Assembly (NCBI RefSeq): GCF_030028105.1
Contig: NC_092374.1
Span: 19,722,630 to 19,786,629, forward strand
Reading direction: 5' to 3'
DNA from: Mobula birostris
Lineage: Eukaryota
DNA: 64,000 nucleotides
The notes below the pieces were generated by a model that was not told where the DNA came from, did no database searches, and saw only the letters and a program-made list of their open reading frames with translations. A program made the position numbers and the translations under genes. Positions 21 through 61,337 of the stretch are shown here, in pieces. Position 1 is the stretch's first letter, and the number at the start of each line of letters is the position of its first letter.

Positions 21-397
21 GTGGACGCATCCAACACAGCGGTCGGTGGAGTGCCGGAACAACTCATCGAGGGTCGCTGGCAACCCCTGGCGTTCTTCAG
101 CAAACACCTACGACCACCCGAACTCAAATACAGTGCTTTCAACCGGGAGCTATTGGCACTATACCTGGCAATCCGGCATTTCAGGTACTTCTTAGAAGGT
201 AGGCCCTTCACCGCGTTCACAGACCATAAACTGCTTACCTTTGCGTTCACTAAGGTGTCCGACCCCTGGTCGTCCCGCCAGCAGCAACATCTGTCCTACA
301 TCTCCGAGTACACGACGGACATCCGGCATGTCTCTGGAAAGGACAACGTCGTGGTGGACGCACTTTCCAGACCTACCATACAGGCCCTGCCCCAGGG
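21..397 (+). pseudogene. Gypsy pol RNase H domain, frameshifted relative to integrase near 395-400
   Basis: ORF 21..497 matches retroelement RNase H up to ALSRPTIQAL, then runs out of frame while integrase continues in ORF 398..1732. Confidence 0.85.
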
Positions 398-1732
398 GTG
401 CACTATGCAGCGCTGGCAGAGGCACAGCAGGCAGACACTGAGATCCCCAGTTACAGGACTGCAGTCTCCGGTTTGCAGCTCCAAGACCTCCCCGTAGGCC
501 CAGGTGAGAGGACCCTACTGTGTGACATAGCTACCGGCCAACCCCGCCCCGTCGTCCCAGCAGCCTGGCGCTGGTGGGTTTTCGAGTCCATTCACAACTT
601 AGCGCACCCCTCCATCAGGACAACCGTCCGGCTGGTCGCCAACAGGTTCGTGTGGCATGGACTTCGTAAGCAGGTCAGTGAATGGGCCAAAACGTGCATG
701 CAGTGCCAAACGGCCAAGGTGCAGCGGCATACCAAGGCTCCGCCGCAGCCGTTCGAACCCACCCGCCGGAGGTTCGACCACATCCATGTGGATATCGTGG
801 GGCCCCTGCCAGTGTCACGAGGAGCGCGATACCTCCTAACTATGATAGACCGGTTCACCAGATGGCCAGAGGCAGTCCCGCTCAGCGACACCACCTCCGA
901 ATCCTGCGCCCGAGCACTGATCGCAACCTGGGTAGCACGCTTTGGGGTACCGACCCACATTACCTCCGACAGGGGCGCCCAGTTCACCTCCAGCCTGTGG
1001 TCGGCTATGGCCAGCCTTTTAGGAACACAGCTACACCACACAACTGCCTACCACCCACAGTCGAACGGACTAGTGGAGCGCTTCCACCGTCACCTGAAAT
1101 CGGCTCTCATGGCCCGCCTGGAGGGGTCTAACTGGGTGGACGAGCTTCCCTGGGTCCTGCTCGGAATCCGCACGGCACCCAAGGAGGATCTGCACACCTC
1201 GTCGGTCGAGTTGGTGTACGGCACACCCCTGGTAGTCCCAGGAGAGTTCATACCAGCCCCAAGGGGGCAAGAGAAAGAACCCACAGCAGTCCTGGACAGA
1301 CTGCAGGAGAGGCTCGGTAACCTGGCCCCCTTACCCACTTCACAGCACGGACAGAGCCCGACCTGCGTACCCAAAGACCCGCAGAACTGTAAGTTTCTTT
1401 TTGTACGACGGGGCGGACACCGGGCACCGCTACAGCGGCCCTACGAGGGGCCGTTTAAAGTGATCAGGAACAATGGGTCCACGTTCGTGCTGGACACTGG
1501 GGGGAGAGAGGAGGTATTCACGGTGGACCGACTCAAACCGGCCCATGTGGACTTGGCGCAACCGGTGCGCAGGCAGAGGGCCGGCCCCAAAAAGGGCGCC
1601 AGGCCATCTTCACCAGCAGGGGGAAAATCCCGCGCGCGGAAAGGGTCTGGGAATATGCATTCCCCACAGCAGTCCCGCCCCAGGGAGGGCGGGAACGGGA
1701 AGGCTTTAAAGCGGGCCGCGAAGTTTGAATAA
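398..1732 (+). CDS. Gypsy integrase remnant (HHCC zinc finger, DDE core, GPY/F motif) reading through into LTR sequence
   Basis: HNLAHPS...CMQC; HVDIVGP...SDRGAQF...SNGLVERFH; YEGPFKV; VDRLKP. Residues after DLAQPV do not look like integrase. Confidence 0.9.
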   Translation: MHYAALAEAQQADTEIPSYRTAVSGLQLQDLPVGPGERTLLCDIATGQPRPVVPAAWRWWVFESIHNLAHPSIRTTVRLVANRFVWHGLRKQVSEWAKTCMQCQTAKVQRHTKAPPQPFEPTRRRFDHIHVDIVGPLPVSRGARYLLTMIDRFTRWPEAVPLSDTTSESCARALIATWVARFGVPTHITSDRGAQFTSSLWSAMASLLGTQLHHTTAYHPQSNGLVERFHRHLKSALMARLEGSNWVDELPWVLLGIRTAPKEDLHTSSVELVYGTPLVVPGEFIPAPRGQEKEPTAVLDRLQERLGNLAPLPTSQHGQSPTCVPKDPQNCKFLFVRRGGHRAPLQRPYEGPFKVIRNNGSTFVLDTGGREEVFTVDRLKPAHVDLAQPVRRQRAGPKKGARPSSPAGGKSRARKGSGNMHSPQQSRPREGGNGKALKRAAKFE

Positions 1733-5417: not shown

Positions 5418-5620
5418 GTGTGATCACTCGAGTTGAGTAAGATGTTCTCCTAAGGGGTTGTCTATTGATGGGTCCTCAGGTGGTTGTAGAGGCTGATCTG
5501 GGATCCACATATTCTGGTGTGCGTGATCACTCAAGTTGAGTCAGATGTTCTACTAAGGGGTTTTCTTTTGGTGGGTTCTCAAGTGGATGTAGTGGCTGAT
5601 ATGGGATCCACATATTCTGG
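5418..5620. repeat. Two tandem ~103-bp units, probably an RTE-type 3' end on the minus strand
   Basis: gtgatcactc(g/a)agttgagt...gggatccacatattctgg occurs twice. Confidence 0.75.
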
Positions 5621-5974
5621 TACAGTGTGGACACCTGTAAGTGGTAGCTGTGGCAGGTGGTGGGGTTACATTAAGAAGAATTTACAGTCATCAGTTAACC
5701 TACCAGCACATCTACTGTGTTACAACAGAAGAGGAAACTGGAGCACTCAGAGGAAACTCGCTCAGTCACAAAAAGAAGCTGGAAACTTCTCACAGGCAGC
5801 AACTGAGCTCTGCTTTTGAAATTTGGTTATATTGATTTCCACAGCGTAAATTTTAAGAAGTGGAATACAGTAGTTCCATAGAGATGGGTTTTCAGCAGGA
5901 AGGTTAGACTGAGCAAGTTATGGATGCTCTCCTCAGAGCAAAGGTGGTGGAAAAGGGACTTAGGTAGAGACATG

Positions 5975-15764: not shown

Positions 15765-18060
15765 TACTCAGTGGTCACTTTATTTACACCCGTAGACCTG
15801 CTTGTTAATGCAAGTATCTAATCAGCCAATCATGTGGTAGCAATTCAATACATAAAAGCATGCAGATATGATCAAGAGGTTTAGTTTTGTACAGACCAAA
15901 CATCAGAAGTCATATTGAGTGTGGAATGACTGTTGGTGTCAGGCAGGGTGATTTGAGTATCTCAGAAACTGTTAATTTCCTGAAATTTTCACACACAATG
16001 TTCCTAGAGTTTACAGGGAAAGGTGCAAGAAACAAAAAAAATATCCAGGAGCAACAGTTGTGTGGGTGAAAACACCTTGTTAATGAGAGAAGCGAGAGGA
16101 GAATAGTCTGACTGGTATAAACTGACAGATAGGCGACAGTAATTCAAATAACCATGTGTTACAACAATGGTGTGCAGAAAATCATCTCTGAATGCACAAC
16201 ACGTCAAGCTTTGAAGTGGGTGGGATACAGCAGCAGAAGACCACACTGATTCCAATCCTGACAGAATAAAATCACCAGAACAAATAAAAGTTTTCCCCAA
16301 TCAGAAACCATGGATGAATAGAGAAGTTCGCCTCCTGCTCAAAGCCAGAGATTCAGCCTTCAGGTCTGGAGACCGGGAGGCTTACAGCTCAGCCAGGGCC
16401 AGCCTGAGGAGGGGAATCTCTCAGGATAAACACATGTACAAACAGAGAATCGAGGAGCGTTTCAGCTCCTCGGACCCCCAGCGAATGTGGCATGGCATAC
16501 AGGTCATTACAGTCTTCAAACCACCTAGTACTGTGCCCCCTTCCAGCTCTGCTTCCCTCCCTGATGAGCTCAATTACTTCTACGCTCGCTTTGACCAAGA
16601 GAACAAGGAGGCAACCCTCAAAGCAGGTCTCCCACCTGGTGAACTGCCTCTCTCACTTTCCACCTCCAATGTTTGCTCCACCCTGAGCAGGATGAATGTA
16701 CGGAAAGCAGCTGGTCTGGATGGAATACCTGGCTGTGTGCTCAGAGTCTGTGCAGTGCAGTTGGCCGGGGTCTTCAGGAAATTTTTAATCTGTCCTTGGC
16801 CCAGGCAGTTGTCCCCACAAGCTTCGAGATTGCCACCATTGTGCCAGTGCCGAAGTATTCCACTGCCACGGGCCTGAATGACTTCCACCCAGTTGCACTC
16901 ACCCCCATTAGTTCGGCATCCAATACCGTGATCCCCACCAAGCTGATCGCCAAACTTCGCCAGCTTGTTATCAGCTCATCCCTCTGCAACTGGACCTTGG
17001 ACTTTCTGGCTAACAGACCCCAATCAGTTAAGATAGACAACCTCTCCTCCTCCACTCTCACCCTGAACACTGGCGTGCCTCAAGGCTGTGTGCTGAGCCC
17101 TCTTCTGTACTCTCTTTTCACCTATGACTGCGTTCCTGTACATGGTTCTAACTCCATAACCAAGTTCACACGACACCACGGTGGTTGGCCTGATCGGGGG
17201 GATGACGAGACGGCCTACAGGGATGAGGTCCAGCACCTGGCCGCGTGGTGTGCAAACAACAACCTGGCCCTTAACACCCAGAAGACCAAGGAGATCATTG
17301 TGGACTTCAGGCATGCTAGGAGCCACACCCACGTCCCCATCTACATCAATGGAGCTGTAGTGGAGTGTGTATCAAGCTTCAAATTCCTTGGTGTCCACAT
17401 TTCCGAGGATTTCACCTGGTCCCTGAACTCCTCCATCCTGATCAAAAAGGCACAATAGCGCCTTTATTTCCTGTGGAGCATCAAGAAAGCTCACCTCTGT
17501 CCCAGGATACTGATGGACTTTTACCGCTGTACCGTTGAGAGCATACTCACCAACTGCATCTCAGTGTGGTATGGCGATTGTGCCGTATCGGACCACAAAG
17601 CACTCCAGCGTGTGGTGAAAACTGCCCAGCGGATCATCGGTACCCAATTGCCCACCATTGAGAACATCTACCATTAACGCTGCCTGGGCAGAGCGAAAAG
17701 CATTATCAAAGACGCATCTCACCTTAACCATAGACTTCTTAACTCTCCTCCCATCCAGTAGGTGCTACAGGAGCCTCCGCTCCCACACCAGCAGACACAG
17801 GAAGAGCTTCTTCCCTGAGGCTGCGACCCTGCTGAACCTCACATCACAGCGCTAAGCAGCATTGCACCCATATTGTACTGTCTCAGTACTTTTATAATTG
17901 TGTGCTGTAACACTTTTTATTCACAGTTATTTTGTAAATAACACTATTCTTTGCATTTCTGGTCAGATGTTAACTGTATTTCATTGGCTTTGTATCTGTA
18001 CTCGGCACAATGACAATAAAGTTGAATCTAATCTAATCTAATAAAGTGGCTACTGAGTGT
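15765..18060 (+). mobile_element. Tc1 derivative family A split by a Rex/Babar LINE
   Basis: Left TIR tactcagtggtcactttatt; right TIR aataaagtggctactgagtg at ~18040-18059. Confidence 0.8.
16262..18041 (+). mobile_element. Rex1/Babar LINE, 5'-truncated, RT pseudogene with internal deletion
   Basis: KPWMNREVRLLLKARD, KAAGLDGIPG, NDFHPVALTP, NTGVPQGCVLSPLLYSLFT, LNTQKTKEIIVDFR, FKFLGVHI; (TCTAA)n tail. Confidence 0.92.
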
Positions 18061-19490: not shown

Positions 19491-21019
19491 AGTGGTGAAT
19501 GTATGATGAGTAATAAATTTTGGCCAGACAAGCAGCCCAAAATGAAATTCTAAGAGTGCGAGATCCAAAATATTCCAGTGAATTTTCACTTTAGCTCGGG
19601 CTTATTGGCTCATTATCCTTTGACTTAATAACCTGCTGATTTCCTGTTCCCTAGACAACTGTTTTCACTCCTCATCACCTTCAAAACTTCTTCATTGCTT
19701 TCACCCAACTCTCTCATTTCTCCTGCAGTTCTCCATTGGCGACTTACTTTCATTTGCCTCTCTCCTGGGTTCCCAATACATTGAGTAGCCGCTCCAGAAG
19801 CCACTCAACCTCCAGCCTCGCATTGTAACTATTCATATACATTAACATATAATACTTTTATATAACAACTGCAAGATCCTTCATCGTAAGTATTATCAAA
19901 TAAAATTTGACACCCAGCCACATGAAAATTGGTAGCTTTTAAGGTGTATTATGAAGTGGGCAAATGAGACAGAGACAGGACTGTTTGGGAGAGAGAAAGG
20001 AAAAGAGAGAGATGGACAGAGGGCTTTCTCACAGCTTGGGCCCTTGACAGAAGGTGGATCTTTTTTACATCAAAGATGTTCAACAGAGGCTTAACACAGA
20101 GAAATGAAGAAACCTCCGTCAATTTGATGTCTGTATGGTACTTAAAATCACAACTACAATTTTTTGGACGTCAAGATATTAATGAACTGAGAAATGCAGC
20201 CAAGCAGAGACAGGGTTGATGGGAGAATGGGAATTGGTACAAACAGGCTTCAATGTTACAAACTTCATCCCATGATATAAATGTGGAGAAGTGCAACGAT
20301 GTATACTTATATATATATATATATATATATATATACTGTAATTCACAGCTTTTACTATTATGTATTACATCGTACTGCTGCCGCAAAAAAAAAAACAACA
20401 AATTTCACTACCTATGCCGGTGATATTAAACCTGATTCTGAATCTGATACTGATGACTCTGAAGAAGGCCAACACTGGTACCAGATGTTCCGAAATGCTT
20501 TGCAATCTTGCAGTACTTCTGGACTGTGTGGTGACAGTCACAACACAGGAAGTGTACCAGCCAATTTATGCATAACAGGATCACATCAGTGACATTATAC
20601 TAAGTGCATTATCTGCTTTAAAAGTATTTGAAGGTAAATATCCAAAGAGAATTCCGCTGCATTTCCTATGTGTAATGGCAGGGGACCTTTAGCTCAGAAA
20701 ACAGATGGTGACTCATTTTAATCTCATCTAAAAGACGGTACAATAATTTCTCCTTATTGCACTGAGGCATTAGCCTGGAATTTATGTTCCCTAAAGAGAG
20801 ACCTGATTCCACGACTCTTTGACCCATGGATAAAAGGTGCTATTGATTGCTACACCATATAACAGTGCGATCAAGAACAAGGAATCATAGCAGGTGCAAG
20901 GAGGAGGAGATTTACAACCAATCCAGCCTGTGCTAGTTCTCTGAAAAAAATGGTTTAATTCTCCAAAGTGCTAATTTTTAATTATAAACCCAATTCCAAG
21001 AATCTCCAAGAGAACCACA

Positions 21020-58830: not shown

Positions 58831-59699
58831 AGGAAGTTCTTGATGAGAATGAGTAACCTATCAGATACTGAAAGGTCCGGACGAAATGGATGTGGAGAAG
58901 ATGTTTCCACTAATCAGAAAGTCCACAATCTAAGGGCACAACTGCACAAAATATGCGGCGGTTAGTAGAGGTTCAGATGAAGGGCCTCAATCCAAAATGC
59001 CAGCTCTTCACTTCTCTTTATAGATGCTGTCTGACCCACTGAGTTTGTGTGTTGTTCCTGTATCTGCAGTCCCCTGTGCCTCCATTCTGTCACATAGAGA
59101 GCATCTCCGATTTGACATGAGGGCTTTTAAGGATTTTGGAGAATAGTCAATATTCAAGGGGGAATTGAAGAAATATTTGACCAGAGAGGAACTGGGACCA
59201 GTTGATTTCCTCCCCGCTGTGCATTGCACAATTTGAAGTTGACCTCTAGCTGCTCCCACTAAATGGATGTGCCTGTATCAGACTGAGTCATATCCCCTCC
59301 ACACATGGACCTCCACTAGCCAGCTGCACAGAGTATCCAGTGGTTTGCACAGGTCACCCATCAAGACTCCTGCACTTAGCAACAGCAGCAAAAACAAATC
59401 TTTCGCTCCATGCCTTTATGTGCAGCCAGTGAAGCTGAACACAAGGAAAAAGATGCTGCATAAAATATTACAAAGGAGAAATGGTAGCTTAAACACTTTT
59501 CTATCTGCTCAGGGATCATCAGTCAGTCACACCGCCAGACTGCATTTCCTAGAAATGAATAATTGAGATATGTCCCCAAAGAGGAAAATAGAGGTAAATG
59601 TTCATCCAAGATCCACGCAGTGAACTCTTCACCTAAATTAAATTTCATGGCTGTCAATAGAACTCAGTTTCTGAAGCCTTACTTTAAGGGAGTCATGAA

Positions 59700-60233
59700 G
59701 AGAGCAATCCCTGTGGAAAGCAGAAAGTGGAGAGTGAGGAATGGGAAGGGAAGCATGGGCTTAATGGTAGGATCCCATTGTAGATGACAGATGTCCACTT
59801 CCCTCTCCTATCAGATTCCTTCTTCAGCCCTTTATCTCTTCCAGTTATCACCTTCCCACTTCTTACTTCAGCCTCCCTCCTCCACCCACTCACCTCCGCC
59901 CGACCTGATTTCACCTATCTGCCGCCAGCTTATACTCCTTTCCCTCCCCATACCTTCTTATTCTGGTTTCTTCCCCCTTCTCTTCCAGTCCTGCAAAGGG
60001 TCTTGGCCCAAAATGTTGAACGTTTATTCCTCTCCATAGGTGCTGCCTGAGCTGCTCAGCTCCTCCAGCACTTTGTGGGTTTGGCTCAGAATCGCTGACA
60101 TAAGAGGTAGTGCAGATGCTGGAAATGTAGCGTCGTGCACACTATGTGCTGGATGGGGCTCAGGAGGTCAGGCAGCGTCTATGGATGGGAATAAACAGTT
60201 GACGTTTCGGGTCGAGACCCTTCATCGGGACCA
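59700..60233. mobile_element. PLE fragments in alternating orientations
   Basis: Pyrimidine-rich UTR and terminus on plus, then inverted terminus with hammerhead-like motif at 60196-60233. Confidence 0.75.
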
Positions 60234-60295
60234 GTTGATCACCCCCCTCTATTCATTGCACAATTTGAAGTTGGTCTGCAGCACATGGTTTTTCA

Positions 60296-60810
60296 GTCGG
60301 GCGCCAGACGCTCGGAAAGATTCGGCTGGGGCCGTGGTTGAGTGGTCAGCAACTTGGGCCAGCTCCCCCACCGGACTTAGACAGGTGAGGAGGGTGTGAG
60401 GACATCCAGCAGGACTAGAAAAAGCAAGACCTGACAAAGGGCAGATGAGCTCCTTGTGAGCCAACGGCCATCTTCCGTGGAGGAGATTAAAGCCTCACCA
60501 CATATCTACGAATCGTATGCTATGCACCTAGTTAGAAGAGACACGATGAACTTGGGCGCTGCACTGTGTACCTGGACCTGACCAAGGCCTCTGCTTAGGG
60601 AAGGGCCGAGCTCGAAGAAGCGGCCGGGGCTGGAGGCCGACACGGCCTTGGGCTCAAGTTCGGCGGGGGCAGCGGCGGACAGTGCCAAGGCGGCCAGCGA
60701 GAACAAACTGGAGGAGAGGCTGTACTCGGTGCTGTTGCAAGATCGAAGAAGATGGAGGTACATAGCTGCCAACCCTGGATTCGGGACGGCACCTACTGAC
60801 TGACTGACTG
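60296..60810 (+). mobile_element. RTE-type non-autonomous element with (ACTG)n tail; hosts the ZFTRAF1 fragment
   Basis: 3' part encodes an RTE-like C-terminus QDRRRWRYIAANP, then actgactgactgactg at ~60795-60810. Confidence 0.5.
60558..60735 (+). pseudogene. ZFTRAF1: Circularly permuted 178-bp fragment of the ZFTRAF1 (CYHR1) 5' coding region
   Basis: 60600-60734 encodes [45 protein letters not shown] and 60560-60592 encodes CTVYLDLTKAS. Vertebrate CYHR1, as I recall it, reads ...PPKKR...[26 protein letters not shown]. Confidence 0.88.
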
Positions 60811-61337
60811 CAGCACATTGTCTGTATCTGCAGGATCTTTTGCATTTATATAATGCAATAGATTTGTTTCTACTCAACATTAAACTGAGCTTTCAAATAT
60901 GGATCTCCACTGATTCGTCTGTTCACTGAGAAAGAATTTGAAAGAGCAAACTGCTGAGAATATTCAACCCTTGGGAGGTGTTTGAGAAAAGAATAACATT
61001 TCAGGTCCCGACCTAATACCAGGTTGGAATTTTCAGCTGATGTTGCCTGGCTCACTGACTACTTCCAGGATTTCTTGACTTTGATTTGCAGTCCGCTCTA
61101 TCTGTCCCCCTTCATATCAATCAAAGTCGCCTCACATACTCCGTCATTCCAAAAACTTGTTAGTTTTTAGGTAATTACCTCCAGAGAATCACTCACTCCC
61201 GCACAAACCTTCCCCTACCCTCAACATTTATTTTTGAGGTCAACTCAGACAGAACGTATCCAATATTATGCCTTGAAATAGCTATGGATATAACTCAGCA
61301 CCTCAGGGAATGATTAGAGGTCCTTATTTATTTAGAG

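Follow-up and report, generated by a model that had tools for sequence, protein, structure and literature searches.

The question raised by this locus is how a short coding fragment of the gene ZFTRAF1 (CYHR1) came to lie in the window, i.e. in the whole 64,000-nucleotide stretch of DNA that was analysed, with its two parts in swapped order. The original prediction took it for the fossil of a small DNA circle that had been opened and built back into a chromosome. The permutation of the ZFTRAF1 exon piece is real; what surrounds it is more complex than was thought. The features of the locus are as follows:

60276-60286, + strand: left target-site duplication (11 nt), an exact repeat of 60808-60818 (13 of 14 positions with extension)
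60287-60521, + strand: non-coding 5' part of the retroposed unit, tentatively an RTE 5' UTR
60522-60557, + strand: twelve codons resembling the C terminus of the RTE ORF, the last of which directly adjoins the captured piece on its left
60558-60593, + strand: segment B, the ZFTRAF1 codons that come next after segment A in the parent, with Cys changed to Tyr and Pro to Thr
60585-60599, + strand: closure zone at the passage from B into A, with a probable imperfect microhomology at 60585-60593
60600-60735, + strand: segment A, chondrichthyan ZFTRAF1/CYHR1 first-coding-exon sequence, sense to the RTE element
60736-60795, + strand: 3' end of an RTE-clade LINE, with the last ORF codons (QDRRRWR...) and a terminal 11-mer at 60785-60795
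60796-60807, + strand: (CTGA)3 microsatellite tail, whose repeat unit matches the first three bases of the target-site duplication
60808-60818, + strand: right target-site duplication, directly after the tail

The parent gene was correctly named in the original prediction, as seen from the translation of segment A, a protein search and tblastn. In a search of 5.8 billion proteins the best match of the 73-residue frame of segment A was ZFTRAF1 of the sawfish Pristis pectinata (E 7.5e-8; 1 protein, 299 candidates), and tblastn of the Pristis protein against the window gave 74% identity over 53 residues at 60585-60734. The homologues used for comparison were 72 proteins retrieved with the first 130 residues of Pristis pectinata ZFTRAF1. 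The motif directly 5' of the basic stretch is common to the window and five chondrichthyan ZFTRAF1 proteins only, and the Arg that precedes it occurs, besides the window, in three batoid proteins only, which makes a ray or one of its relatives the probable host. Other ZFTRAF1 exons were not found in the 64-kb window, which ends 3.2 kb downstream of the locus.

Segment B is below the length that tblastn can handle and was therefore sought by a codon-degenerate scan of both strands (127,936 positions). Position 60560 has two nucleotide mismatches to the 11 parent residues that follow segment A, whereas the runner-up has eight, and the chance of a match of this quality is about 2e-11 per position. 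Both changes in segment B are non-synonymous; the Cys and the Pro concerned are kept in all 70 homologues that carry the anchor motif (72 examined). The last base of A and the first two of B form a single Cys codon between them, so the pieces abut, and neither of them extends into the flanks. In other words, two blocks that adjoin in the donor are present in swapped order, as judged at the protein level against the orthologues of other species. The predicted B-then-A order with abutting ends is thus supported by the scan and by the shared Cys codon, and the adjacency of A and B in the parent gene, on which the prediction had staked itself, was found at the protein level. The claim that A joins B with no base gained or lost would be correct only with a parent Cys codon ending in C, a base on which protein data are silent.

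The piece is not the free-standing insertion that had been assumed. It forms the middle of a 521-nt unit (60287-60807: 271 nt, the 178-nt piece and 72 nt) that is bounded by a target-site duplication and ends in an RTE 3' terminus with a microsatellite tail. As a background for the duplication, recurrence of an 11-mer 100-1500 nt upstream is seen at 180 of 62,389 window positions (0.29%). The target-site duplication, the RTE 3' end and the tail indicate that reverse transcription took part in the history of the locus. The missing poly(A) tail, which had been offered as evidence of a DNA route, argues for nothing since the piece lies in an RTE unit that ends in (CTGA)3. The region upstream of the piece (60287-60557) has three to five stops in every forward frame. 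Two published RTE 5' UTR motifs match at 60371 and 60400 with two mismatches each, and their window-wide counts are at chance level (1 vs 0.66 expected and 7 vs 6.5 expected). No further copies of the 5' part were found in the 64-kb window, i.e. the unit is present there once. We note that the capture created a 73-codon stop-free frame (60582-60803, + strand) in which segment A, with its basic KKR stretch, is fused to RTE C-terminal codons. This fusion frame has no ATG and shows no sign of expression, and no sign of function was seen in the captured piece or in the unit.

The RTE assignment was made from the 3' terminus and from the ORF codons on both sides of the piece. The terminal 11-mer is identical to the bases that precede the microsatellite tail in RTE-1_OAf, RTE1_Pca and BovB_La (PMC5786205 supplement), and it has a single match in the window at one mismatch or less (0.27 expected). 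In three hagfish RTE consensus sequences, translated by eye, the ORF ends in two conserved blocks that are six residues apart (PMC7245038 supplement). Residue-set motifs of the C terminus were built from two hagfish RTEs and applied after the likeness had been noticed; read with this proviso, 60522-60557 ranks within the best 4 of 127,924 positions in six frames, and 60738, which shares the frame of 60522, within the best 2 of 127,954. When read as an N terminus, 60522-60557 is among the top 1,291 only, and the alternative of an RTE ORF beginning in the codons that precede B, with the piece at a 5'/3' deletion junction, is placed far below the C-terminal reading. Between the two blocks 2 nt of spacer are left vs 18 nt expected. 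As RTE C-terminal codons stand on both sides of the piece in one frame, the piece apparently replaced about 16 nt of the RTE ORF, provided that this family has a hagfish-like spacer. The searches yielded no RTE relative at the protein or the DNA level, so for the RTE identity and the 16-nt loss we depend on elements published from distant animals. The C-terminal motifs have other high scorers in the window, at 19971 (+ strand), 13170 and 8318 (- strand) and 47453 (+ strand), with one motif each; these are probably chance matches or remnants of other LINEs.

Searches with the frames and other parts of the locus had the following outcome. Among longer proteins, the 73-aa frame and the 93-aa read-through matched only ZFTRAF1 (1 match among 299 candidates and 1 among 1,230, respectively) and no RTE relatives. 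For the 41-aa upstream frame a single repeat protein with 39% identity was found among 1.84 billion representatives, which we judged spurious. In a protein atlas the frames of the locus gave three unnamed clusters at 0.76-0.77 and otherwise no usable match; none of the three locus frames has a Pfam family (24 ORFs scanned). Rfam gave three matches, all far below the gathering score, and the window contains no tRNA. An HDV-like ribozyme, sought with a descriptor of our own that had no positive control, was found neither in the insert nor in any of 114 window pieces. Folding is not significant in the 5' part (z 0.59) or in the 3' part (z -1.39).

The composition of the piece is as predicted, but its meaning is different. 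The 178 nt have a GC content of 0.66 and a CpG observed/expected ratio of 0.69 vs 0.31 for the window. The flanking element DNA is nearly as rich (0.60-0.61), hence CpG richness is not special to the piece, whereas the microDNA-like size and the exonic, GC-rich source stand as claimed. The ratio of 0.60-0.69 across all three parts suggests that the element and its passenger are similarly young. Compared with the parent, the piece has at least four amino-acid-changing substitutions in 40 comparable codons, a comparison that leaves out five junction codons and the unalignable Gly/Ser/Ala stretch at 60636-60683. These changes amount to an estimated 4% or so of the non-synonymous sites, and two of them are at residues kept in 70/70 homologues. 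An intact 11-nt duplication is compatible with this level of divergence. The piece looks like a neutral relic.

The closure point may lie anywhere within 60593-60599, and the junction can be parsed in two ways. In the frame of A, 60585-60602 reads R-P-L-L-R-E, as compared to R-P-(Q/E)-L-E-E in all three batoid parents. The last nine nucleotides of B differ from the upstream register of A by one mismatch with Pristis (4 of 327 offsets are equally good) and by two with the skates (22-23 of 303 offsets). Closure at a microhomology is therefore probable, though the comparison is with back-translated proteins of other species and the likeness is only modestly unusual (1-7% of offsets). In the microhomology parse the linker of the original prediction is parental sequence, in which two bases (60597-60598) are substituted, and base 60592 agrees with B. 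In the second parse B reaches 60597 with one substitution and is followed by one filler base, and no microhomology is needed. Closure occurred 8 nt short of the end of a Gln codon at which one of 70 homologues diverges in a manner resembling intron read-through, which would place an exon border at this codon. The junction is thus inside continuous coding sequence and short of the putative donor; by the definition in PMC4897178 this is no canonical back-splice, and the earlier views that closure took place within the exon and not at a splice site, and that back-splicing is unlikely, are both sustained. A cryptic back-splice was considered and rejected: the required donor and acceptor are one base off. 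At the other border of the piece, the first four bases of the right flank (60736-60739) repeat at offset 2 in segment B (60558-60563), for which we estimate a chance of about 2% over five offsets. This recurrence may stem from a switch guided by homology, or the piece may overlap by 4 nt.

MicroDNA has a length peak near 180 bp. The explanation that we prefer, with a confidence slightly above even, is the incorporation of a microDNA-like circle into an RTE retroposon, the circle having formed within the exon and having been cut a single time; the weights attached here to this and to other mechanisms are a matter of judgement and were not computed. According to this explanation a small DNA circle would have arisen from about 178 bp of the GC-rich first coding exon of ZFTRAF1, its ends joining at a short imperfect repeat within the exon or next to it. 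The permuted order and its position near the RTE 3' end are plain; the presumed circle would have been opened once, within the Cys codon, and joined there without net loss, and about 16 nt of RTE ORF would have been replaced in the process. Two moments of capture seem to us about equally likely: reverse transcription into the target, when the enzyme would have switched to the opened DNA and then returned, or a subsequent break, be it in this copy or in the copy from which it stems. The 521-nt unit itself would have been inserted by target-primed reverse transcription, of which the target-site duplication and the tail are visible.

Several observations are consistent with such a circle. The ends of A and B abut without extension into the flanks, as is expected of a circle that was cut once, and the published signature of circular intermediates is just this B-A order with micro-scars (PMC7450558). 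MicroDNAs are 100-400 bp long, come preferentially from 5' UTRs, exons and CpG islands, and depend on MMEJ (PMC9527254). The length of 178 nt is thus within the range of the review, but the predicted equation with one nucleosome plus linker is based on one length from one event. The LINE reverse transcriptases make several rounds on intact RNA circles (PMC11331410) and displace annealed strands (PMC4117753), so that copying which ended after precisely one round is easier to reconcile with a circle that had been opened beforehand than with internal copying. The B version at 60592, the one informative base in the microhomology parse, would be allowed by end joining, whereas minus-strand cDNA made from the repeat copy in A would be expected to carry the A version. 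Against the circle speaks the place of the piece, which lies sense to a CpG-rich, apparently young retroposon that makes up about 0.5% of the window: random integration of a DNA circle need not give so rare a location or the sense orientation, and capture of RNA by the element's own enzyme predicts both. The R2 reverse transcriptase jumps onto DNA as well as RNA templates (PMC4117753), so a DNA circle captured during integration would satisfy both the once-round permutation and the sense placement. The whole evidence base is one event.

The strongest competitor dispenses with the circle and we regard it as possible but rather doubtful. The RTE enzyme would have abandoned its own RNA at a distance of some 70 nt from the tail, copied a once-cut ZFTRAF1 RNA through A and then B, run off the end of B and returned to the RTE RNA. 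The template would be a cut mRNA whose halves were held together, or a nicked, non-spliced RNA circle, and one cut in the RNA would yield both abutting ends. The sense orientation, the exon-only content and the place inside a unit with a target-site duplication all agree with this. RTE elements do make template-switch chimeras (PMC4476161), mRNA/LINE-1 chimeras are known (10.1101/2025.02.02.635956), and the end-to-end jumps of R2 add up to five untemplated bases (PMC4117753); the filler-base parse suits such a jump. However, three switches are needed in one event, base 60592 in the microhomology parse would be the wrong version for first-strand synthesis, and in the published chimeras, as these sources describe them, the foreign RNA is at one end of the LINE and not between two LINE parts. 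A break in an RTE copy repaired by serial template switching (polymerase-theta or MMBIR-type) from the ZFTRAF1 locus, B and then A, would likewise need no free circle. The apparent loss of about 16 nt at the site, the clustering of substitutions at 60597-60598 beside the closure and the possible microhomology are in line with repair, but the to-the-base abutment of the start of B and the end of A is left without a reason, and we hold this to be improbable.

Two further alternatives are of very low probability. A canonical back-spliced circRNA pseudogene has precedents (PMC4897178), but the junction lies within one exon and not at the putative donor, and neither cryptic site falls in place. An assembly or library chimera is given, jointly with the circRNA pseudogene, the same very small weight: the piece differs at residues that are invariant in 70/70 homologues, the unit around it is coherent and has a target-site duplication, a structure that an artefact would not produce, and the plasmid and phage collections contain no match to the locus. 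The sequence decay within a coherent unit also argues against a technical origin. Least credible of all is the copying of one unit from a tandem duplication, in the parent gene or in a paralogue, that already contained the B-A junction. The same closure junction would be expected; yet 178 nt in a coding exon would shift the frame, none of the five aligned chondrichthyan proteins has such a duplication, and the copying of exactly one unit would be a coincidence.

The proposed opened microDNA-like circle has partial counterparts in known systems. Duplications that arose by way of circular DNA (human segmental duplication pairs, PMC7450558; the cattle KIT translocation as cited in PMC12722694) share the swapped abutting blocks, the apparently distant donor, the small junction scars and the repeat breakpoints, but they are 22 kb to 3.9 Mb long whereas here we see 178 bp, inside one exon and a retroposed unit. 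The microDNAs (PMC9527254, PMC11879418) share the size, the unique, exonic, GC/CpG-rich source and the probable closure microhomology. In these sources they are free circles, and the present case would be their integrated, inherited trace only. Bipartite derivatives of RTE are common in this size range (PMC5786205, PMC7245038). The bipartite non-autonomous RTEs and RTE-tailed SINEs described there (RTE-N2_Lch, Bov-A, SINE1-1_EBu, platypus snoRTE) are also short units with an RTE 3' end, a microsatellite tail, a target-site duplication (published 6-19 bp) and a non-coding 5' part of similar length. Their foreign parts, however, are small-RNA heads at the 5' end, whereas here it is the RTE 3' part that is broken up by a permuted coding fragment, the 5' part is only tentatively RTE and there is one copy in 64 kb. 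The LINE template-switch chimeras (U6/L1, U6/RTE, mRNA/L1; PMC4476161, 10.1101/2025.02.02.635956) have in common with our locus a host sequence sense to the LINE 3' end within one target-site duplication, but the foreign sequence is here internal, flanked by the element on both sides, and permuted. The circRNA-derived pseudogenes (PMC4897178) are likewise non-colinear exonic copies without a poly(A) tail; they are defined by a back-splice exon-exon junction, which is absent here.

Each of the ingredients, i.e. circle-mediated duplication and LINE chimerism, is known, and their combination is seen here once. In the literature covered (most subscription journals and Repbase excepted) we found neither an RTE element holding a permuted, non-spliced exon of less than 200 bp nor a report of germline-fixed microDNA, and ZFTRAF1/CYHR1 was not mentioned in what we found on the subject. 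A 2025 perspective describes the reintegration of circles in the animal germline as sparse and cites gene-sized cases only (PMC12722694). The locus bears on the inherited return of the smallest DNA circles to chromosomes: the piece may record, as a rare case, the inheritance of a tiny DNA circle, and at 178 bp it would extend the record downwards about a hundredfold. As a single relic without sign of function its own biological weight is small. A bolder extension, which we consider a long shot, is that the 521-nt unit belongs to a mobile family driven by RTE, and that an opened microDNA circle from a protein-coding exon had been taken up by the founder of this family. If this were true, retrotransposition would be a route of germline entry and amplification for microDNA, and the unexplained middle bodies of SINE-like elements would have a concrete origin. 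Other RTE copies should then carry once-round permuted exon pieces of microDNA-like lengths in both orientations.

The rest of the window contains other repeats. A 48-nt stretch to the left of the element (60227-60273, + strand) recurs about 1 kb upstream at 59194-59241 (+ strand) with 87.5% identity, an unexplained repeat that may be a local duplication or a shared old repeat. The neighbouring region 59996-60231 is 67% similar to its own reverse complement, has many related pieces in the window and is MITE-like by structure. At 254-1732 (+ strand), in the other GC-rich part of the window, a 492-codon frame is intact and encodes an integrase core (Pfam rve, E 2e-16) and a zinc-binding domain (Integrase_H2C2); it is LTR-retrotransposon-like and apparently young. 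A 271-codon frame at 16643-17458 (+ strand) with a partial reverse transcriptase domain (RVT_1, E 6.5e-10) is a LINE remnant, and at 5420-5621 a 103-nt unit is found in two tandem copies with 88% matches.
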